A stretch of DNA of 64,000 bases from a virus (IMGVR_UViG_3300011862_000001:128001-192000), one strand, 5' to 3'; shown: positions 1,815-24,885, numbered from the stretch's first letter. Notes: a model not told the origin generated them from the letters alone. Program-made: numbers and translations.

Positions 1815-3584
1815 GTGTTTGCAGATTCGATAAGACGGTTAAAACAGGAAGGCAAGATCGTACCTTTTAACCGTGCCGTGGCAGAAGGTATCGGATATAC
1901 ACAAGCAAAAGATGGAATACACGAGCGCGTCTACAGCATCCTACGTCGTGAATTGACGTATGATCCGGAAACGAACCCGCGTCTGCCAATCGGTTTGGCG
2001 GTACAACAGTTCCGCTTTATGTCGCCGTTTGAAACCTTTGTGTTTAAAGTGGCCAAAGCGGATACGCGCCAAGCCCGAGGTCGTGCCCCGATTTCTATTG
2101 CCCGCACCGATCAGTACATGATCATGGCGAACTTTAAAATCCCGGGCGAGAACCGTCTGACTCCACGACCCATCTACCTGCCGTTTATTCGCCGTGGCGG
2201 ATTAATGTACAGTTGGGGTACGTTGTACCATGTGGCACCGGTGATTCACCAACCGGGCATCTGCCGTGAGCATGGCGGTATCTTCATCAACTTTGACTTC
2301 ACCCGTAAGGTCTCGCTGAAGTTCTGTAAGAACCCCGCGAAGATTCTGGTTAACGGGAAGAAGGAGGAAATCTATCTGCCGGGTACGTCCAATTTATACG
2401 TACCAAAAACCACCCAGGGCAACGATTCCGATGAGAAGCCACTGATGTATTGGCTCTTTGGTAAATACGGCTTCAGTGAGGCTGTGAAGCGTTGTACGGG
2501 TGCTGATGTGCGCATCATCCCCGCTTACCGTATCCACGAACTGGATTTGGAAAAGGAGGTAGTGATTTCATCCGGTGAACCGCAACTGGCGAAGACCATC
2601 CAGTACGCGTTAGTCACCGACCGTCGTAACTTCCCGAACCTGGACAAGTCACGTTGGGACCAAGATGAACACATGTTGTTAGTGGTGTGTGCGGCGTTCT
2701 ATAAAGCAGCGCATTACTACGCCAGTAAACAATCGGCCCGTTCGCCACAGCGTACCACCCTGACGCCACTGTTTACTCGCATCAACGAATTTGATGAGCA
2801 GGAGGATTTGAATAACCTGGACAGTCCTGAAATCTGGAAAGAGATCTTAGGGCGCAGTATTCAGGGCACCAAACCATCTGAAGTCGATTTACTGCGCAGC
2901 ATGAACAGCCACTTTATGGAATGTGAACGCTACGTGAACAATACGTTCCGTGCCGAGCTGATGGTCAGCGATCCGAACATCGATCCTGACATGGACATGT
3001 TTGGCTTCCTGTACTACACCACCCGCTTAATGGTACGTACCCGCTTAACCAAGCAGGATGATATCCCATCCATGTACGGCAAGCGTCTGACGGTGGTGGA
3101 TTACTTGCTACTCGGTCAGAATGGCTTTACCAGCACCATCTCCAACATCCGTTGGCGATTAAGTCAGCTGGAAAACCGCAGTGCGGAGAGTTGCCACGAT
3201 ACCATTCGTGATGAGCTGAATAAGAAGATAGTGCCTAACTTGGTGTGCCGCGGTATCACCAGTAACGGAGCGATCAACTTCTTCAATGCCTCAACCGAAT
3301 CCATGGTACTGGCGGTATCGACCCATGCGATTGGCCAAACTGAAACCGACAGTAAACGGGGCAAGAAAGGGAAGACCGTTAACCTTAACGATCGTACCAA
3401 ACACGCTTCTGCGTCGCATCTGGAACTCGGTAACGTGTACTACATTCCGAAGTCCGCGCCGTTTAAGTCAAACATCCTCAATCCATACATGATGACCAAC
3501 CGTAACCTGGTCATGCTACGTAACCCGGCGCTCGATAAATACATTCGTGAAGCCGAAGCCGACATTGCACTTATCGGCCGTTAA
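1815..3584 (+). CDS. non-virion RNA polymerase beta-like subunit (phiKZ gp123-like)
   Basis: 589 aa; motifs IYLPFIRRGG..GTLYHVAPV and SHLELG..IPKSAP..LNPY recalled from the gp123 family; synteny with portal; GGAGG RBS. Confidence 0.7.
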   Translation: MFADSIRRLKQEGKIVPFNRAVAEGIGYTQAKDGIHERVYSILRRELTYDPETNPRLPIGLAVQQFRFMSPFETFVFKVAKADTRQARGRAPISIARTDQYMIMANFKIPGENRLTPRPIYLPFIRRGGLMYSWGTLYHVAPVIHQPGICREHGGIFINFDFTRKVSLKFCKNPAKILVNGKKEEIYLPGTSNLYVPKTTQGNDSDEKPLMYWLFGKYGFSEAVKRCTGADVRIIPAYRIHELDLEKEVVISSGEPQLAKTIQYALVTDRRNFPNLDKSRWDQDEHMLLVVCAAFYKAAHYYASKQSARSPQRTTLTPLFTRINEFDEQEDLNNLDSPEIWKEILGRSIQGTKPSEVDLLRSMNSHFMECERYVNNTFRAELMVSDPNIDPDMDMFGFLYYTTRLMVRTRLTKQDDIPSMYGKRLTVVDYLLLGQNGFTSTISNIRWRLSQLENRSAESCHDTIRDELNKKIVPNLVCRGITSNGAINFFNASTESMVLAVSTHAIGQTETDSKRGKKGKTVNLNDRTKHASASHLELGNVYYIPKSAPFKSNILNPYMMTNRNLVMLRNPALDKYIREAEADIALIGR

Positions 3585-3613
3585 AGAATATTAAAAAATC
3601 TAAGGAGTATCAA

Positions 3614-5191
3614 ATGCCACAAATTAAACCCGAGTTAGTTGTTAGTCTGTGTGAAGCCCGTCTCGCTACTGATCGCACATTAGCCATCATTAACGAGCAA
3701 GTGGCCAAGCTCAGACTCAGCTTAACGGATGCGTTGGACCTGGCAGTACGTTTTGGTAACGTAATGCAGCAGCGCAACACCGACGAAGAAACGCTGACCA
3801 ACGGTATCGTTGCCGCCTTTAAAGCCGGTGCGTACCGTATGTTGACCAATAGCGGCGTGGCGTTTACGAACGATAAAGAACTCCACGACCGTTTAACCAA
3901 CCTGTTTACCAGTGTGGTTACCGCCATCAAAACTGCGAGCACCGTGCAGGAAACTGCATCATTAACCGGTGGTCTGCGTTTAGGCGGATTGGGTGGTCAG
4001 GGTATCATTGCCGGTGGTTCGCTGTCTGTCGAGCCGTCTAGCAAGACGTCTGTCGATTACGACGTGGGGTTAGGTGGCGGGGTGCTTCACAGTGGTGGTT
4101 TAGCTGTCGATACCGGTGGCCTGCGGGTGGAAACGTCTCCTTTAGCGTCTATGCCCGCAGCCCCACTGATTCCTGACCCGGAACCGACTCCTGTTGCTGT
4201 GCCACAAGTAAGCTATAATCAACCGGTATACAATCCATTCGAGGAACCTAACTTGGAAACCTATGCAGAGCATGAGCTGGCTGCACCGAAACGTCGAGTT
4301 TCTTTGCCGGCAAAAGAAGCCAACGATCGCGTCACCCAGTATGCCGAGCAGAACGATTGGACGTCACCACTGGAAGATTTGGTATTGGGTTCCACCAGTA
4401 CCGTCTACTATAAAGGTGCCGACATCGCTGTACGCACGAGTCAGGTCGATCGTAAGTACCTGGTGGCGGTTAACGACGAAAGTAAAGCCCGCTTTGAGAA
4501 GTTTGCAGCGGGACACAAAGAAGCGATTGATCACCTGCTGAAATTGCCGAGCCTGAACTTCGACGAGCAAAAGCTGATTTCCACTGTGACCGGCATTATT
4601 GATGTCATGCGTCGTGATGTGGTACAGCTGTATCTCGAATCGGTCTCCGAGAACGAAGAAGTCACCGAAACCGTGGTAGCTGAAGCGGTGCGTTTTGTCA
4701 ATGCGTATCTGTCCGTACTGACCACCCACGTACACAACGGTCTGGTGCTTGCTACCAACCGTGGTACCGAAGTTGCCGGGATTAAAGGCCGTGTTGAACT
4801 CGAGCGCAAAATTGATGACCTGGTGTTCTTTGCAGACGATCTGAACAAACGTCTTATGGGTGATAACGGCTTTAGTACCGAGCCGGATTTCTTCCACGAC
4901 CTGTTCTTGACTGTCGCCATGGCACTGTCCACCTTTAACGTTTCGTTTGATGGCTCCACCATCGCCATTAGCATGAAGAATGCCGACATCCTGATTCCGG
5001 GTAGCTATCCGGCACTGGAACGTAACAATCTGATTGGCCGTCACAGCTTAGGCGCAACGGCAGATGCGCTGACGGATATGTTTGAATACCTGCGTGCCCA
5101 AGCACCAGATACCAACGTATTCCTGGTGGCACCACAGGGGCGTTATCTGTTGCTGAGCAACGGTGAGCCAACTGCGGGTATCCGCTACTAA
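3614..5191 (+). CDS. hypothetical protein with Gly/Pro-rich linker
   Basis: 525 aa; AAGGAG RBS; terminator follows. Confidence 0.8.
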   Translation: MPQIKPELVVSLCEARLATDRTLAIINEQVAKLRLSLTDALDLAVRFGNVMQQRNTDEETLTNGIVAAFKAGAYRMLTNSGVAFTNDKELHDRLTNLFTSVVTAIKTASTVQETASLTGGLRLGGLGGQGIIAGGSLSVEPSSKTSVDYDVGLGGGVLHSGGLAVDTGGLRVETSPLASMPAAPLIPDPEPTPVAVPQVSYNQPVYNPFEEPNLETYAEHELAAPKRRVSLPAKEANDRVTQYAEQNDWTSPLEDLVLGSTSTVYYKGADIAVRTSQVDRKYLVAVNDESKARFEKFAAGHKEAIDHLLKLPSLNFDEQKLISTVTGIIDVMRRDVVQLYLESVSENEEVTETVVAEAVRFVNAYLSVLTTHVHNGLVLATNRGTEVAGIKGRVELERKIDDLVFFADDLNKRLMGDNGFSTEPDFFHDLFLTVAMALSTFNVSFDGSTIAISMKNADILIPGSYPALERNNLIGRHSLGATADALTDMFEYLRAQAPDTNVFLVAPQGRYLLLSNGEPTAGIRY

Positions 5192-19481: not shown

Positions 19482-20081
19482 ATGCCAGAAATGATTTTAG
19501 ATTCATTATTTCTGATCACCAGCGCCTATATCAGCAAGCACAAAAAGTTACCGGTTCAGGTTTGCGTACGCCGTAAAGGGGTAAGTCGCCTATACCACAT
19601 GACGACCGTGCTGGATATTGCCTGCAAAGTGACAGGAATGGACAAACCCAAAAGCCTTAACCGATTTAACCACATTCGTGGGATTCTTCACAAGGCGGTG
19701 TGTGTGGTGTACCGAATGCGTCGGGACTCACCGTATCGCTTTTTGTTGAAAGACGGTGTGGCGGTCAGTGACTACCGGGAAAACCTGGTAGACTTGCGTG
19801 ACGACTACTGTAATGTTTGCGGCATGGGCCGTGAGCGTCTGGTAGCAGTCGCACAGGGAACCTCGCGTGCCCCTACCCAACAAGAAGCCGAAGCCGCTAT
19901 CGAGATGATGCGTCGTGCGGAGTTGGTGGTGGTGAATACGGAAAAAGAAGCTTACCGTCTTCAGCACTATTTGGCAGAACGCGCACTGACTCCTATCGTG
20001 GTACACCATGCAGCGGTTGCAGGATTGGAACTTCCGAAAACGGAAGGCCAGTGGTCTGAACCGACAGTGGTGCACCAATGA
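19482..20081 (+). CDS. hypothetical protein
   Basis: 199 aa; followed by a terminator. Confidence 0.7.
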   Translation: MPEMILDSLFLITSAYISKHKKLPVQVCVRRKGVSRLYHMTTVLDIACKVTGMDKPKSLNRFNHIRGILHKAVCVVYRMRRDSPYRFLLKDGVAVSDYRENLVDLRDDYCNVCGMGRERLVAVAQGTSRAPTQQEAEAAIEMMRRAELVVVNTEKEAYRLQHYLAERALTPIVVHHAAVAGLELPKTEGQWSEPTVVHQ

Positions 20082-20084
20082 GCA

Positions 20085-20122
20085 GTACCCACCCTTCGGG
20101 GTGGGTACATCTTATATTTTTT
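20085..20122 (+). terminator. intrinsic terminator
   Basis: GTACCCACCC-TTCG-GGGTGGGTAC plus T-rich tract. Confidence 0.8.
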
Positions 20123-20123
20123 C

Positions 20124-20144
20124 GAATAGATATTATTTAGGTGA
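20124..20144 (+). promoter_or_regulatory. phiKZ-type early promoter motif
   Basis: GAATAGATATTATTTAGGTGA. Confidence 0.7.
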
Positions 20145-20186
20145 GAATACATCCTATTCTTTTACCAGACTATCGAGGAAGTCGTT

Positions 20187-20921
20187 ATGTTAAAGAAAAC
20201 CGTGGGTCGCAATATCAGTGAGGTGTTGGAGAACCCGTTTCTGGAACTGGTGTATCATTTAGAAATTCCTGGCAACCCGTGGGCGGCGTATTACTTTACC
20301 GATAACCGACCGAAGAATAGCGCATGTGGGGTGTTGGTTGAACGCCGTAGCGGCAGAATAATCCACCGCTTGAATAAGGCGGTGTCCGGCAGTACAAAAC
20401 GTAAACCCATCTTCATGCCCTACTCGTTTGTCTTCAATCTCGAGGAAGAGATACACCACTACTTCTTTCAACATGCTTGTGGTGATATTGATTTGGTGAA
20501 CGCTTTAGAGAAACGCGACAAAGTGATGATAAAAACTCTCGACCCGTTCTTCTATACCCTACTCGATCTCTATCAACGCGCAGCGTATCTGCAATGGCCC
20601 ACCGAGAAGTTTGAACAGTGGCCGACATTCCGTACACTAACCTCGACCATCTCCACCACCATTATGGTGAACGGGATACGACGCTGGGTGCAGGTGACCC
20701 GTTCATTGGAAATGCGTTACGTCAATAAGAGTGTGGAGTTTGTGGTGAACTTTGGTTTTCCCAGTTGGCGTAGTGGCACCTTCGCGGCCACTATCAACCG
20801 CCAGTATAACTTAAAGGAACTGCCGACGGTGAAACAGTTTGTAGACGACCCGCGACACCAACCGATTTATGAACTCGTTTTTCGTGATTACGATGAACGT
20901 GTCCCGCCTAAAAAGCGGTGA
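20187..20921 (+). CDS. paralog 1 of tandem ~240-aa family, function unknown
   Basis: Shares LxxExxxYFF..D..DP and C-terminal INRQYNLKELPT with four neighbours. Confidence 0.8.
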   Translation: MLKKTVGRNISEVLENPFLELVYHLEIPGNPWAAYYFTDNRPKNSACGVLVERRSGRIIHRLNKAVSGSTKRKPIFMPYSFVFNLEEEIHHYFFQHACGDIDLVNALEKRDKVMIKTLDPFFYTLLDLYQRAAYLQWPTEKFEQWPTFRTLTSTISTTIMVNGIRRWVQVTRSLEMRYVNKSVEFVVNFGFPSWRSGTFAATINRQYNLKELPTVKQFVDDPRHQPIYELVFRDYDERVPPKKR

Positions 20922-20926
20922 TTTTA

Positions 20927-20948
20927 TACAGTAGCAATCATCTTTATG
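20927..20948 (+). promoter_or_regulatory. TAC-N15-TATG candidate promoter
   Basis: TAC 20927-29 and TATG 20945-48; the final G is the first base of the pseudoknot. Confidence 0.5.
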
Positions 20949-20973
20949 CCGTTGTGCGTCGGTTAAAACGCAT
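20948..20973 (+). ncRNA. 26-nt H-type pseudoknot leader element, copy 1
   Basis: GCCG-TT-GTGCGT-CGGT-TAAA-ACGCAT; S1 GCCG/CGGT, S2 GTGCGT/ACGCAT; ends 25 nt before ATG. Confidence 0.7.
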
Positions 20974-20998
20974 CACCCTTAACTAAGAGAGAACTATC

Positions 20999-21748
20999 AT
21001 GTTGACACATTTCGATATCGTTTCAAACACTACCGGTAAACGTTTGGAAGTTCGCGAGTCCCACGTTAAAGCCAATCATCCCAACATCGTACGATTAAGC
21101 CTATCCCTCGTAGATGTGGTGTCCGGTGAAACGAAACCGTTGACAACATCCCCCCGCTTAAACATTCAGCTGTCGCCCGAAGCTAATGCCCAGCGTGTCT
21201 TGATGGCCATTAAGAACGAAGCCAGTATCCAGTTCTTCAAACTGGTAGCCCGTAAGCCCGAGGCCATCAGCGCGTATCACGAAAAAGACTGGACGACCCT
21301 GTCTCGACTGGCCCCGCTGTTTGCTCAGCTGCTGGACTTCGTACAGATTTACAGCCGGATGCTCGGTGCGGCGCACTCCGGTGACCCGTTCGATTTCCAG
21401 CCACTGGGCAAGATGGACTTGCGTGCATCACACAACCACGTTCCGTTGAAGGTGAGTTGTGACATGATGATGGTGGAAGGCCGGACGTCTGACCGTGTCC
21501 GGGTGACGTACGCGTTCTCCCTGGACGGCGTCGCGGTTAAAAGGCTGCGTGAAAACGGACAGCTGACGCTGAGGTACACGTATCCCGTGGCTGAATGGCC
21601 GAGTATAAAAGTGTTTATGGAAGAAGAACGTGTGCAACGTATTCTGGATGCCTGGCTCCCTCCGTCCCGTATGGAATCTCCGCATGCGTCGAAGGCAATG
21701 ATGCCGACGGGGGAAGTCACCAAAGACCGGCCGAGCGATCAAGAATAA
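20999..21748 (+). CDS. paralog 2 of tandem ~240-aa family
   Basis: IKNEASIQFF..D..AP; LTLRYTYPVAEWPS. Confidence 0.8.
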   Translation: MLTHFDIVSNTTGKRLEVRESHVKANHPNIVRLSLSLVDVVSGETKPLTTSPRLNIQLSPEANAQRVLMAIKNEASIQFFKLVARKPEAISAYHEKDWTTLSRLAPLFAQLLDFVQIYSRMLGAAHSGDPFDFQPLGKMDLRASHNHVPLKVSCDMMMVEGRTSDRVRVTYAFSLDGVAVKRLRENGQLTLRYTYPVAEWPSIKVFMEEERVQRILDAWLPPSRMESPHASKAMMPTGEVTKDRPSDQE

Positions 21749-21759
21749 CCGAAGTAGTA

Positions 21760-21792
21760 AAACAGGCGACCGTCGGGTCGCCTGTTTATTTT
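21760..21792 (+). terminator. terminator-like hairpin
   Basis: AAACAGGCGACC-GTCG-GGTCGCCTGTTT then ATTTT. Confidence 0.75.
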
Positions 21793-21794
21793 AA

Positions 21795-21820
21795 ACCGTC
21801 GAGCCCCGGTCAAGAGGCTC
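21795..21820 (+). ncRNA. 26-nt H-type pseudoknot leader element, copy 2
   Basis: ACCG-TC-GAGCC-C-CGGT-CAAGA-GGCTC; ends 24 nt before ATG. Confidence 0.7.
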
Positions 21821-21844
21821 CTAACTAACAGAGAGTAAAAACCC

Positions 21845-22576
21845 ATGATTAAATACGACGTAGAAAAAGCAGCCCAGTTCCTGGACGGTAAGAATGTGAA
21901 AATCGTCCGTGAGTTTGTGGCTGACCGCGACTCCAATAATCGCCTGTTGGTGTTGCACTACACCCGTACCACTGGCACGGTCTCTACTCAAGCCGCGCTG
22001 TTATATCCTAACCACGCTATCGGTCTGATGAAACTGGATATGTTTCGCAGTGTGGTTGCGAATATTGAAGAGTGGTCGGATTTGGACAGGGTTTGTGAGA
22101 TGCTACGGGCAGAAATATCGCGTTACTTTTTCGTGAGGCTTGCCCGCTCGCGTGACGATATGGTGTTGTTTCGCCACGACCAGGCCCGACTGTTACAGGT
22201 GCGGTTCTTCCTTCGTCAACTCGCTGAATTAAACCGGGTGGTGTTGGCAGCGATTGACAACCCACGTACCCCCGTTGGGGTAAACGAACGGGAAACCGGG
22301 TTACCTGACCGGTTGTTCTGGTCAGACGAGTGTCGGGGGAACCTCGATGGTGAAGTGTACCACATTCGTCGGACACTTAGTCACAACAACGTACCGAACC
22401 TTTTAATAACGGACGGTGACAAAATTAATCGTCACTGCTTTGCCGATATTCGGATTTCGGGACGGGGTGGACGGAGCTTGTGCGTCGAGAAAACCTACCC
22501 ACTGACCATTTGGCCGACGGGGGACGATGTGTTGAAAGAGTACGCTGAATCCGTTCGCCGAATGAATAACAATTAA
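21845..22576 (+). CDS. paralog 3 of tandem ~240-aa family
   Basis: LRAEISRYFF; LCVEKTYPLTIWPT. Confidence 0.8.
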   Translation: MIKYDVEKAAQFLDGKNVKIVREFVADRDSNNRLLVLHYTRTTGTVSTQAALLYPNHAIGLMKLDMFRSVVANIEEWSDLDRVCEMLRAEISRYFFVRLARSRDDMVLFRHDQARLLQVRFFLRQLAELNRVVLAAIDNPRTPVGVNERETGLPDRLFWSDECRGNLDGEVYHIRRTLSHNNVPNLLITDGDKINRHCFADIRISGRGGRSLCVEKTYPLTIWPTGDDVLKEYAESVRRMNNN

Positions 22577-22582
22577 TGACCC

Positions 22583-22611
22583 AGGCGACCTTCGGGTCGC
22601 CTCTTTATTTT
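22583..22611 (+). terminator. terminator-like hairpin
   Basis: AGGCGACC-TTCG-GGTCGCCT then CTTTATTTT; near-copy of the hairpin at 21760. Confidence 0.75.
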
Positions 22612-22613
22612 AA

Positions 22614-22639
22614 AACCGATACGTGCCGGTTAAGCACGT
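22614..22639 (+). ncRNA. 26-nt H-type pseudoknot leader element, copy 3
   Basis: AACCG-AT-ACGTGC-CGGTT-AA-GCACGT; ends 25 nt before the ATG at 22665. Confidence 0.75.
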
Positions 22640-22664
22640 CTATACTCTCAATAGGAGAAAAGTT

Positions 22665-23321
22665 ATGAAAGCCACTTACGCCAAAATCGGTATGGAGTTT
22701 ACCAAGTTACTCGCGCTCCCTCGTGTGAAGGAGATGGAGCTACCGACTGTTTATCTCGGTAAGGCGACGGTACACTTGATGTACGATAAACTGGAGACGA
22801 TTTATTTTGTGGTCGCGGTCGAGGATGGGGTTATCGTACGACTGTTCCATCGTTGTAAACGCCCGCACGCCCGTCCTAACGACGCACGTCTTGCTCGGCG
22901 TAATATCCTGCGTGATGAATGTGCTATGTATTTCTTTAAGCATATTGTCAGGAACGATACCAAGTTCGAACGGTTTATGGCCAAAGACCGTACTGCCCTT
23001 AAACTGCGCGACAACATGTACTTCAAGCTGCGTGAAGCGCATATCGCCACCCACGTCGGCACAGCCGCCCACCAGGAAGATGTGTGGGAAGTACCGAGTT
23101 GGGCAGGAAGAATGCAGGCCGTGATTAACGGTATCCCCATCTCGTTCTTTCGCCGTATCACCTTCTCACGCATGACCGGGGTGGTTACCGTCACCCACGA
23201 ATTTAGACGCACCAACGACAGTGAGTTAATCCTCAAAAAAGAATATCCCGATCGTCAGTGGCAGACCTCAAAAGTGCTGCTCGCCGAATGGGATATCCTG
23301 ACGTTGTTGAAACTGGCTTAA
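22665..23321 (+). CDS. paralog 4 of tandem ~240-aa family
   Basis: AGGAG RBS puts the start at 22665; LRDECAMYFF; LILKKEYPDRQWQT. Confidence 0.8.
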   Translation: MKATYAKIGMEFTKLLALPRVKEMELPTVYLGKATVHLMYDKLETIYFVVAVEDGVIVRLFHRCKRPHARPNDARLARRNILRDECAMYFFKHIVRNDTKFERFMAKDRTALKLRDNMYFKLREAHIATHVGTAAHQEDVWEVPSWAGRMQAVINGIPISFFRRITFSRMTGVVTVTHEFRRTNDSELILKKEYPDRQWQTSKVLLAEWDILTLLKLA

Positions 23322-23328
23322 ACTAACC

Positions 23329-23349
23329 GGCGGTGGCAACACCGCCTTT
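23329..23349 (+). terminator. GNRA hairpin, weak terminator-like
   Basis: GGCGGTG-GCAA-CACCGCC-TTT. Confidence 0.55.
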
Positions 23350-23352
23350 CCC

Positions 23353-23378
23353 TCCGATGCACACCGGATAAAGTGTGC
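23353..23378 (+). ncRNA. 26-nt H-type pseudoknot leader element, copy 4
   Basis: TCCG-AT-GCACAC-CGGA-TAAA-GTGTGC; compensatory T-A pair in S1; ends 23 nt before ATG. Confidence 0.75.
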
Positions 23379-23401
23379 CACACCCAAAAAAGGTAAAATA
23401 A

Positions 23402-24139
23402 ATGAACGTTGAAATTCTGCTTCGTCAAGCTATCAAAGATGTGATGTTACAGTCCGACTACACCCATGTGTTTACTCTCGATGCCCCGAACAGTGATTAC
23501 ACGGCGCACTACTTTGTGGGCCAGACGGACACGAACGATGCGCGTGGGGTATTGGTCAATAAAGCCACCGGTATTATCGATATGGTGATGGACAACTTTA
23601 ACTACAAGCGCTTAAACGCTGCCAAAGAAAAAGTCTGGATGCCCCGTTCGTTTAACCGTTCGCTTTATGAGAATGCCGCTGAGCGCTTTTTCCGCAACCA
23701 TGCCAACAACCAAGATTTTATTCTCGGCTTGATTGAGCAAGATGAAGAAAAAATTAAACGCTACGACCCGCTGCTCCACGCGTGCCTGGTTCTGTGGGGT
23801 GTGTGTCGCGATCATGACACCGGTCGCCCACAAGGCTTCTATCCACCGCGAATGGTGCAGTGGAACAGTACGCCGCGTATGCCGGTGCCGTACGAACACT
23901 TTATCCGGGTTGAGCGTAAGCTCACCATGGAGCTTTCTCGCAGCACCGTCGAATACCCCACAGTGGAAGTCTGTATGACCTTCCGGGGTCGTCATGTGCG
24001 GGACGTAAAACGGGGAGTCGGTAAACTCACCTTAACCCGTAACTTCCGTGGCGGCTGGGATAATACCCAACGCTTTGTGACCGACCCACGTAACAACCAA
24101 TACATCGAGCTATTCCTACAGGAAATCAGACTCGACTAA
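23402..24139 (+). CDS. paralog 5 of tandem ~240-aa family
   Basis: LYENAAERFF..QD..YDP; FVTDPR (cf. paralog 1 FVDDPR). Confidence 0.8.
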   Translation: MNVEILLRQAIKDVMLQSDYTHVFTLDAPNSDYTAHYFVGQTDTNDARGVLVNKATGIIDMVMDNFNYKRLNAAKEKVWMPRSFNRSLYENAAERFFRNHANNQDFILGLIEQDEEKIKRYDPLLHACLVLWGVCRDHDTGRPQGFYPPRMVQWNSTPRMPVPYEHFIRVERKLTMELSRSTVEYPTVEVCMTFRGRHVRDVKRGVGKLTLTRNFRGGWDNTQRFVTDPRNNQYIELFLQEIRLD

Positions 24140-24146
24140 CCTTAGC

Positions 24147-24180
24147 AGGTACCCTTCGGGGTACCTTCTTTTTTTTGTTT
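24147..24180 (+). terminator. intrinsic terminator closing the paralog array
   Basis: AGGTACCC-TTCG-GGGTACCT plus long T-tract. Confidence 0.85.
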
Positions 24181-24202
24181 TACAGGTTGTGTACATTATG
24201 TG
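24181..24202 (+). promoter_or_regulatory. TAC-N15-TRTG candidate promoter
   Basis: TAC 24181-83 and TATGTG 24197-202, upstream of tmk. Confidence 0.5.
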
Positions 24203-24234
24203 AACGAACCACCGCTTTACATTAGGGGAACATA

Positions 24235-24885
24235 ATGACGTTAACCGTGGCCTTTGACGGCCCAGATACTTCCGGTAAATCCACACTGGTTGCGAAAGTA
24301 AAAAAAGTTTTAGAAAGTATTGGTTTGCGGGTCGGGATGGTTAACCATCCGTCGTCCGCCTCCGAGACTGGTCAATTCGCTCGTCGCCAACTGGTGATGG
24401 GGATGAACGATGCTGTTGTGGCTCAGGCCATGTGCAAAGATTTTGAATACACGTTACAGTTTATCGTCCCGCAGTACGACGTGGTACTGCTAGATCGCTG
24501 GGCACCCGTGACCATCGCCAATCAGGGCGAAGCGGGTAAAGAAGAAGTGTTTCGCAGCAATATCTGTAATCTCGAAGGCGCACCGCAGATTTATGTCTCG
24601 ATGCAAGTCGATTACGAGACTGCCGTTAAACGCACTCAGAAGCGTCTGGCAGAGCAGGGCGTTGACTGGGATGAATCGGTCAGTGCGAAATTGTTCGTCT
24701 CACCTGAAGCGTGGCAGGCAGCCTGTGAGCGTTATAAGTACGCTTTCCAGATACTCACCGAAGGCGGCAACAAGTTCGACTGGTTGCAGTTTGACGAAAC
24801 CTCTGATCCGGCTATGACGACACTGACTATCGCGACGCACATTGCTGAGCGTTGGGCACGTACCCAGAAAGCAGTCGCGGCGTAA
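24235..24885 (+). CDS. tmk: thymidylate (dTMP) kinase
   Basis: P-loop VAFDGPDTSGKST; LLDRW motif. Confidence 0.85.
   Translation: MTLTVAFDGPDTSGKSTLVAKVKKVLESIGLRVGMVNHPSSASETGQFARRQLVMGMNDAVVAQAMCKDFEYTLQFIVPQYDVVLLDRWAPVTIANQGEAGKEEVFRSNICNLEGAPQIYVSMQVDYETAVKRTQKRLAEQGVDWDESVSAKLFVSPEAWQAACERYKYAFQILTEGGNKFDWLQFDETSDPAMTTLTIATHIAERWARTQKAVAA

Follow-up and report, generated by a model that had tools for sequence, protein, structure and literature searches.

Five open reading frames (ORFs) lying in tandem between positions 20187 and 24139 of a 64,000-nucleotide stretch of viral DNA (hereafter the window, bases 128001-192000 of the 236,909-bp virus record IMGVR_UViG_3300011862_000001 with direct terminal repeats) are true paralogs of a single protein family, phrog_6820, and the spacers in front of copies 2-5 encode compact RNA pseudoknots of one common design. 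We consider it highly probable that the locus unites an old paralog family with a gene-specific cis-regulatory pseudoknot placed in the leaders of its members, the element being co-inherited with the gene through all duplications. This reading is founded directly on homology, on how old the duplications are and on an RNA structure exclusive to the family, and promoter classes, dimerization of the product and any RNA-protein contact are what we infer in addition. The closest catalogued relatives of the phage are SPN3US-like jumbo phages of Salmonella, Erwinia, Escherichia and Proteus. Coordinates refer to the window unless the genome or a locus extract is named.

All five ORFs were confirmed on the + strand at intervals of 46-96 nt (copy 4 counted from 22623), and the whole genome contains exactly five copies of the family. 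Each of them matches the phrog_6820 profile (E-values from 2e-45 to 6e-5, Table 1), copies 3 and 4 aligning to profile positions 73-245 only, and a hidden Markov model compiled from 23 members found outside of the window recovers all five (E from 2e-17 to 8e-43) and none of the flanking genes. Direct comparison by BLASTP links only some of the copies, namely 1 with 5 (E 4e-12) and 2 with 4 (E 7e-7), at identity not exceeding 28%. The FF motif is invariant in the five products and nearly so across 36 sequences, and the C-terminal LxLxxxYPxxxWP motif is present as well. The AlphaFold2 model of copy 2, built on a 36-sequence alignment (predicted local distance difference test, pLDDT, 88.5; predicted template-modelling score, pTM, 0.83), is confident and comprises an N-terminal five-stranded sheet, a four-helix segment bearing the FF motif, a second sheet of four strands and C-terminal helices. 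Its Foldseek search against BFVD returned nothing but uncharacterised jumbo-phage proteins, from the related Erwinia phages Kwan, Wellington, phiEaH2 and Machina (probability 1.0, template-modelling (TM) score 0.5-0.8), several of which have lengths fitting other subtypes (e.g., 232 aa in phiEaH2 and 224 aa in Wellington). On the profile matches of all five ORFs and the structural matches of the copy-2 model, their kinship as diverged paralogs, which the original prediction had proposed from the same FF and L..YP..WP motifs, is now established as homology.

The distribution of the family is narrow. Among 1.84 billion cluster representatives 35 were found at E<=1e-3, and all those traced belong to SPN3US-like jumbo phages, as do all 34 phage records detected by tblastn with copy 2; a 4,438-aa match from the search of representatives, an IgGFc-binding repeat protein, was judged spurious. 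Megablast of the 4.2-kb array gave a single similar stretch, 51 nt in the leader of copy 2, with Erwinia phage Caitlin as the only match. Neither Pfam nor PADLOC returned matches to the window copies, a word-based homologue search returned the query alone, and no relatives emerged when IMG/VR was searched for related loci starting from copy 2, copy 3 or the five-way alignment. Every record of the family is annotated as "hypothetical protein", PHROGs v4 lists phrog_6820 with function unknown, the leader RNA is annotated nowhere, and a literature search found no paper naming gp99, the SPN3US member. The member encoded by ChrisDB (locus extract 2699-3601) is 300 aa long and has a C-terminal extension of ~50 aa absent from the other members.

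The locus is syntenic throughout the group: genes for an internal head protein and an acetyltransferase and three small genes are followed by the family and by the gene of thymidylate kinase (tmk), so that in relatives, too, the family sits between a gp98-like virion protein gene and tmk. Copy numbers were compared across 15 phages, as had been suggested originally, and vary from one to five. A single copy is present in SPN3US, Proteus phage 7, EC001, ChrisDB, SNUABM_9, SNUABM_6, SNUABM_43 and pSal-SNUABM-04, two in Asesino, phiEaH2 and SNUABM_4, three in Caitlin and Kwan, four in SNUABM_11 and five in the phage considered here, which is the largest array seen; no SPN3US-like relative examined was without a copy. 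In the maximum-likelihood tree of 28 family members each window copy is placed with orthologues from other genera and never with another window copy (support 97-100). Copy 1 groups with Caitlin gp107 (57% identity), copy 2 with Caitlin gp108, Asesino gp116 and phiEaH2 gp24 (~33-34%), copy 3 with Caitlin gp109 (67%) and copy 4 with Kwan gp129 and SNUABM_11 00131 (31%), while the clade of copy 5 includes SNUABM_4 00119, Kwan gp130 and the group of copy 1. Because window copies group with other-genus orthologues, the duplications are to be regarded, on the topology of the tree, as old and preceding the separation of these genera, with phages differing in the copies retained or lost rather than in recent amplification.

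This outcome contradicts the gene-accordion expansion assumed in the original prediction. For a recent accordion the copies should be mutually closest within the genome, and they are not; copy number does differ between close relatives, as such a scenario also expects. The strong divergence claimed along with it holds in part: compared with Caitlin, copy 2 evolves fast (33% identity), but copies 1 and 3 (57% and 67%) diverge about as much as their neighbours, nine flanking genes showing 33-78% identity and eight of them 53-78%. These data bear directly on the idea that the products are host-conflict proteins (anti-defence or host-takeover factors) diversified in an arms race, each paralog being directed against a different host target and the leaders being incidental expression signals. 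Variation of copy number from 1 to 5 among related phages agrees with it, as do confinement of the family to one phage group, the fast evolution of copy 2, the early-type promoter and the absence of the SPN3US homologue from the virion list (both described below). So does the slot between this promoter and the copy-2-type gene, which is variable, being occupied by a copy-1-type paralog, by unrelated small ORFs or by nothing (SPN3US). The small ORFs were located at locus-extract positions 2148-2612 in ChrisDB, 2895-3236 in SNUABM_9 and 2877-3200 in SNUABM_4; the first two are mutually related (30% identity, E 4e-12), the third resembles neither, and all three, as well as Kwan gp126/127, were rejected as members of the family. 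Nevertheless, similarity to known defence or anti-defence families is lacking (nothing in PADLOC, and AcrIF24 at Z 4.2-4.9, that is, at noise level), the paralogs are old and their orthologues are kept across genera at ordinary divergence, and the fact that none of the relatives examined lacks the family fits, as does the age of the paralogs, a core function better than an accessory one. We rate host conflict as rather unlikely to be the main driver.

The second line of evidence comes from the spacers. Those preceding copies 2-5 share the pattern N-CCG-NN-[5-6 nt]-CGG-N'-YAAA-[complement of the 5-6 nt], the geometry of which corresponds to a compact H-type pseudoknot of 25-26 nt with a GC-rich stem 1 (S1) of 4 bp, loop 1 (L1) of 2 nt crossing stem 2 (S2, 5-6 bp), no junction nucleotides and a YAAA loop 3 (L3) crossing S1. 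It was found before 24 of the 28 family genes examined, including family genes of every relative, with about 12 different S2 sequences. When 25 distinct sequences were aligned with the model, standard pairs filled 98.2% of the 220 pair cells, as compared with 25-44% if the partners are slid by 1-3 columns, and in seven of ten pairs, including all six of S2, both partners change. The inner three pairs of S1 are invariant (CCG/CGG), and the outer one is GU, CG, AU or UA and never unpaired. The covariation score of 0.528 exceeds the value of 0.142 obtained in shuffles and was reached by none of 500 of them, and with its many G-U pairs the structure is compatible with the sense strand alone. Although the model fitted this alignment to S2, the ungapped first 26 columns of a plain MAFFT alignment display the same pairing (window copy 4 alone needs a one-column shift, its L3 being 1 nt shorter), so that the pairing is not an artefact of fitting.

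The element is bound to its genes. A covariance model (CM) applied to five whole genomes of ~240 kb (this phage, SPN3US, Caitlin, Kwan and Asesino) detected it only before phrog_6820 genes, the sole other row (Asesino, 20 bits, E 0.06) being taken as chance; in this phage it finds the four pseudoknots of the array and nothing else. Exact-pattern scans of IMG/VR with the pseudoknots of copies 3 and 5 gave Caitlin as the only locus confirmed by the model and 14 others attributable to chance. Four genes devoid of the pseudoknot, namely copy 1, Caitlin gp107, Asesino gp115 and phiEaH2 gp23, form one clade, and each of them is the first gene after a promoter-like box and has a strong Shine-Dalgarno (SD) sequence (GAGGA, AAGGAG). 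Where the pseudoknot is present, it is separated from AUG by 23-25 nt in the window and by up to ~30 nt in relatives, and from the SD, often weak AGAGAG, by ~10 nt, the SD being unpaired in copies 2, 3 and 5. The leader of copy 2 is 88% identical to that of Caitlin over 51 nt, while the proteins share only 33%, and S2 of the copy-3 leader is identical in the leader of Caitlin gp109. As four compensatory transition pairs distinguish S2 of the copy-5 leader from that of pEa_SNUABM_4 00119, S2 drifts in the manner of a structural helix.

With its compact H-type topology, its invariant nucleotides and A-rich L3, its place in a 5' leader and its strict gene specificity, the element resembles preQ1-I/II/III, SAM-II/V and guanidine-III riboswitches, and a metabolite tied to the function of the protein might be sensed here. 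Several observations make this very improbable. A search of Rfam over 20000-24300 at E<=10 revealed no relevant family (preQ1-I/II/III, SAM-II/V, guanidine-III or fluoride), S2 is free to vary so that only ~10 nt are invariant, and both SD and AUG lie outside of the pseudoknot (~10 and 23-25 nt downstream) with neither alternative pairing of the SD nor a downstream terminator seen, that is, no expression platform is evident. Compared with preQ1-I, SAM-II and guanidine-III, the element is alike in size class, in topology (3' arm of S1 in the hairpin loop of S2), in the A-rich L3 and in its place in a 5' leader, but it differs in conserved nucleotides, has no CM match, does not incorporate the SD and stands in a context that implies no ligand. 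A literature search on leader pseudoknots of jumbo phages found nothing relevant.

The original prediction had described the repeating unit as a hairpin, AU-rich linker, pseudoknot, ribosome-binding site (RBS) and gene. This arrangement holds for copies 3-5, where the pseudoknot begins 0-3 nt after a GC hairpin and U/A-rich linker, but not for copy 1, which has no pseudoknot, nor for copy 2, whose spacer carries TTATACA-N13-TTATG in place of the hairpin. The start of copy 4 is almost certainly ATG 22665 rather than GTG 22623, because the latter falls inside the pseudoknot, and spacing and SD fit ATG. Three leaders show peculiarities of their own. In the copy-4 leader (22641-22664) the SD GGAG can pair with upstream CUCUC in a small hairpin predicted by RNAfold, which showed none in the other three window leaders. 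In Kwan (locus extract 4076-4102) a family gene runs into the pseudoknot of the copy that follows, its stop codon TAA being UAA of L3, so that a ribosome translating the first of the two should open the leader of the second; a similar overlap of gene end and pseudoknot is suggested by the coordinates in SNUABM_11 (locus extract 4058-4083).

Both bounds of the array proposed originally, a promoter at the start and a strong terminator at the end, agree with the features collected in Table 1. The box TTTTTTCGAATAGATATTATTTAGGTGAGA at 20117-20146 has about ten close intergenic copies of ...GATAGATATTAT... genome-wide and occupies the same place in SPN3US, Asesino, Caitlin and phiEaH2. The repeated motif has the form (T-rich)-GATAGATATTAT-(N)-AGGTGA and usually stands just after a terminator hairpin (e.g., genome positions 48193, 57580, 78221, 160250, 210998 and 222561). 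Jumbo phages encoding RNA polymerases (RNAPs) each have an AT-rich motif upstream of presumed early operons (PMC7598289), and the GATAGATATTAT motif is probably the early (virion RNAP) promoter consensus of this phage. In the copy-2 lineage, represented by 10 phages, another box, TTTTTTACG-N12-TATG, precedes the pseudoknot; in most of the 10 the final G of TATG is the first paired nucleotide, and SPN3US-type and Asesino/phiEaH2 leaders have TATG shifted by another 5-7 nt in the 5' direction. A box of this type also precedes tmk (24178-24201), and the class TTTTAC(G/A)-N11-14-TAT(G/A) has 15 matches in the genome against 3.2 in shuffles (window 24925, 604 and 1257; genome 216852 and 235071). 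The late promoter of phiKZ is T(-3)ATG(+1) (PMC7598289), and the class appears to resemble such a TATG(+1) start supplemented by an upstream box. A GC-rich hairpin followed by a U tract, as in intrinsic terminators, is found at 20085-20108, 21760-21787, 22583-22602 and 24147-24166.

The gene located just 5' of the array (19482-20081) is the orthologue of SPN3US gp98, 78% identical to Caitlin gp106. The array thus opens a new transcription unit directly behind a block of virion or ejected proteins. In SPN3US, gp98 belongs to the virion proteins of low abundance and is reported to be missing from the particles of virion RNAP mutants (PMC5694885). The homologue of the family, gp99, is missing from the list of 86 SPN3US virion proteins, on which its upstream neighbours gp94, 95, 97 and 98 are present (PMC5694885 Suppl. 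Table 1); the number gp99 was derived from tmk being gp100 (PMC5694885), from gene order and from masses. Four transcriptomic runs of one study contain a near relative of SPN3US (identity of 99% or more for most contigs) in the form of assembled contigs only, which span the leader, the gp99 homologue and tmk and cannot show 5' ends, strand or level; contig breaks inside the gp99 homologue carry sequencing-adapter tails, steps in depth are not evidence, and no conclusion on expression or start sites was drawn.

Table 1. Features of the phrog_6820 array and its borders (window coordinates)
Feature	Position	Strand	Evidence and remarks
Terminator-like hairpin with UUCG loop, closes upstream virion-protein operon	20085..20108	+	10-bp stem, 7 GC pairs
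Phage promoter-like box TTTTTTCGAATAGATATTATTTAGGTGAGA, probably early class	20117..20146	+	Repeated genome-wide, kept in relatives; class inferred
Paralog 1, 244 aa, A-type, no leader pseudoknot, strong SD GAGGA	20187..20921	+	phrog_6820 E 4e-41; orthologue of Caitlin gp107, 57%
Putative second promoter-like box TTATACA-N13-TTATG, last G is nt 1 of pseudoknot 2	20925..20948	+	Box type kept in copy-2 lineage of 10 phages, also before tmk
Paralog-2 leader pseudoknot: S1 GCCG/CGGU, S2 GUGCGU/ACGCAU, L3 UAAA	20948..20973	+	CM 68.4 bits, E 2e-14; covariation
Paralog 2, 249 aa, B-type, orthologue of single SPN3US-type copy (gp99)	20999..21748	+	phrog_6820 E 2e-45; tree
Terminator-like hairpin, then U-rich linker to 21794	21760..21787	+	RNAfold
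Paralog-3 leader pseudoknot: S1 ACCG/CGGU, S2 GAGCC/GGCUC	21795..21820	+	CM 51.3 bits, E 5e-10; covariation
Paralog 3, 243 aa	21845..22576	+	phrog_6820 E 4e-5; 67% identity to Caitlin gp109
Terminator-like hairpin with UUCG loop, then U-rich linker to 22614	22583..22602	+	GC-rich hairpin and U tract
Paralog-4 leader pseudoknot: S1 ACCG/CGGU, S2 ACGUGC/GCACGU, L3 1 nt shorter	22615..22639	+	CM 36.9 bits, E 2e-6
Paralog 4, 218 aa from ATG 22665	22665..23321	+	phrog_6820 E 6e-5; groups with Kwan gp129 and SNUABM_11 00131
Hairpin after paralog 4, poor U tract	23329..23346	+	RNAfold
Paralog-5 leader pseudoknot: S1 UCCG/CGGA, S2 GCACAC/GUGUGC	23353..23378	+	CM 48.6 bits, E 2e-9
Paralog 5, 245 aa, A-type	23402..24139	+	phrog_6820 E 7e-25; BLASTP to paralog 1 28%, E 4e-12
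Strong intrinsic terminator ending the array: stem 24147-24166, 8 bp, UUCG loop, T8	24147..24175	+	GC-rich hairpin and U tract

The family protein, ~245 aa in length, is probably a homodimer, judging from structure prediction. The predicted complex reached an interface score (ipSAE) of 0.61 against 0.01 for the best of three controls, the runs agreeing in at least 84% of contacts with partner pLDDT of at least 83; of 30 proteins whose solved structures are pairs of one chain 20 attained this mark, and of 23 solved as single chains 1 did, counts that hold only roughly given the use of an alignment compiled for this analysis. In the predicted interface the conserved LxLxxxYP strand (184-194) pairs with its twin, and helix 211-219 participates as well. 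The window copies have isoelectric points of 8.7-9.8, and most members of the family are basic. Solved structures gave no counterpart: Foldseek of the first model against PDB had its best E of 3.7e-3 at TM 0.15, exhaustive VIA fold searches with two models gave best Z of 4.7 and 5.0 (5.0 again on a second look), ESM Atlas searched by shape and by features yielded nothing above TM 0.4, and PDB sequence profiles returned chance matches only, among them a colicin DNase (E 0.92), rejected as the window proteins have no HNH motif. The weak rows of the fold lists concern residues 136-225 at Z 3.5-5, which is the noise band, and include PUR-alpha, Whirly, PP7/Qbeta coat, type III chaperones, AcrIF24 and phiKZ Dip; within it PURA scored Z 3.9, WHY1/2 3.8-3.9, PBF-2 3.7 and PP7 coat 3.9 over the same residues.

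How the pseudoknot may act can be outlined as follows. Transcription would start, probably, at the early-type promoter (~20117-20146) and run to the terminator at 24147, and pseudoknot 2 may in addition coincide at its 5' end with a start of the TATG type. The pseudoknot would then serve as a gene-specific cis element setting the expression of each copy post-transcriptionally, and its near-constant distance to the RBS points to an action on translation initiation. The 23-25 nt between pseudoknot and AUG fall inside the reach of the 30S footprint. Exclusivity together with conservation of the whole leader argues for a dedicated trans partner, the obvious candidate being the basic and putatively dimeric product itself: as the most likely mode, the encoded dimer may bind its own leader and hinder 30S binding, resulting in autogenous repression as in T4 gene 32, so that each copy would be titrated on its own within one operon, and the hairpins between the genes may serve in attenuation or processing of the transcript. 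Such an autogenous operator is, in our estimate, a tentative proposal with somewhat less than an even chance of being correct.

Several considerations weigh against a feedback by the product. The leader exclusivity could reflect descent from one ancestral cassette; the copy-1 lineage, which manages without the pseudoknot and has strong SDs, indicates that expression as such does not require the element; stability of the pseudoknot alone (minor-groove triples) can account for conservation of the GC-rich S1 and A-rich L3, with no recognition site needed; and neither an RNA-binding domain or fold nor a Pfam match was detected in the protein, the best PDB matches having Z<=5.0. The co-diversification of S2 with the protein, from which cognate RNA-protein pairs were originally suggested, is expected by descent alone because leader and gene are physically linked, and such pairs cannot be derived from it.

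A role that does not depend on the protein is nearly as likely as autogenous repression. The pseudoknot may be a 5'-terminal or 5'-proximal shield against 5'-end-dependent decay by RNase E and RppH, with the 5' end originating either from TATG(+1) initiation or from cleavage in the U/A-rich linker after the upstream hairpin, and/or a ribosome standby site or enhancer (ribosomal S1) offsetting the weak AGAGAG SD. The copy-2-lineage pseudoknot indeed starts exactly at the G of TTTTTTACG-N12-TATG, as does the late transcript of phiKZ (PMC7598289), those of copies 3-5 follow a hairpin and U/A-rich linker by 0-3 nt, which is a typical RNase E context, and the conserved S1 and L3 are just what a stable compact pseudoknot needs. 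Strength of SDs is distributed accordingly, GAGGA and AAGGAG being found in pseudoknot-less copy-1 genes and AGAGAG in most pseudoknot-bearing ones, but copy 4 (GGAG), Kwan gp129 and SNUABM_11 00131 have good SDs and keep the pseudoknot all the same. Besides, if the element were a generic stabiliser or enhancer, other genes should carry it too, and in five whole genomes none does, and the 88% identity of the whole copy-2 leader, including its unpaired positions, at 33% for the protein is more than a structural cap needs.

The closest precedent for autogenous control is gene 32 of phages T4 and T2, the autogenous translational operator of which includes an H-type pseudoknot in the 5' leader. 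In both systems a phage gene has in its 5' leader a compact, coaxially stacked and gene-specific pseudoknot, which is followed by an unstructured A/U-rich spacer (UUAAA-type) and the RBS. The phrog_6820 element differs in being smaller (4 + 6 bp), nearer to AUG and multiplied with its gene in tandem; RNA binding by its product is putative, and the protein, with no Pfam match, no PDB sequence match and no fold match above Z 5, is probably not a gp32-like single-strand binding protein with the oligonucleotide-binding fold. With the virion paralog families A-C of SPN3US and phiKZ (PMC5694885) the array shares tandem organization, high divergence and variation of numbers between giant phages; in contrast to those head and tail proteins detected in virions, phrog_6820 gp99 is off the virion list, and the family has its own promoter, terminator and RNA leaders. 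One more candidate, the RNase E inhibitor Dip (gp37) of phiKZ (PDB 5ft0), is similar in length (273-aa ORF, 255-residue chain), stems from a phiKZ-like phage and recurs in the weak fold lists over residues 139-223. Dip is a dimer and is acidic, and the phrog_6820 family is basic. Kinship with Dip is considered unlikely (VIA Z 4.1, root-mean-square deviation 3.5 over 67 residues, hhalign probability 0.05%).

Cis-regulatory RNAs of jumbo phages are almost unexplored, and for this element neither an Rfam family nor a paper was found; in it, a small RNA whose covariation is of textbook quality goes one-to-one with a protein family without recognisable fold. A far-reaching version of autogenous control would regard the family as a new dimeric RNA-binding class of nucleus-forming jumbo phages, in which each paralog reads its own leader via S2 identity and the S1/L3 core, forming orthogonal self-titrating pairs that act also on other phage or host RNAs; this is distinctly unlikely. 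SPN3US is genetically tractable, and with its single copy, gp99 and leader, the question can be addressed directly. Should the protein bind the leader, its fold would be a new one for RNA binding, and the array would offer diverged operator-protein pairs as a natural set; should it not, the pseudoknot would be an mRNA stabiliser or translation element of a type new to phages. In either case the element merits an RNA family entry, and the annotation of the copy-4 start, leaders, promoters and terminators is corrected.

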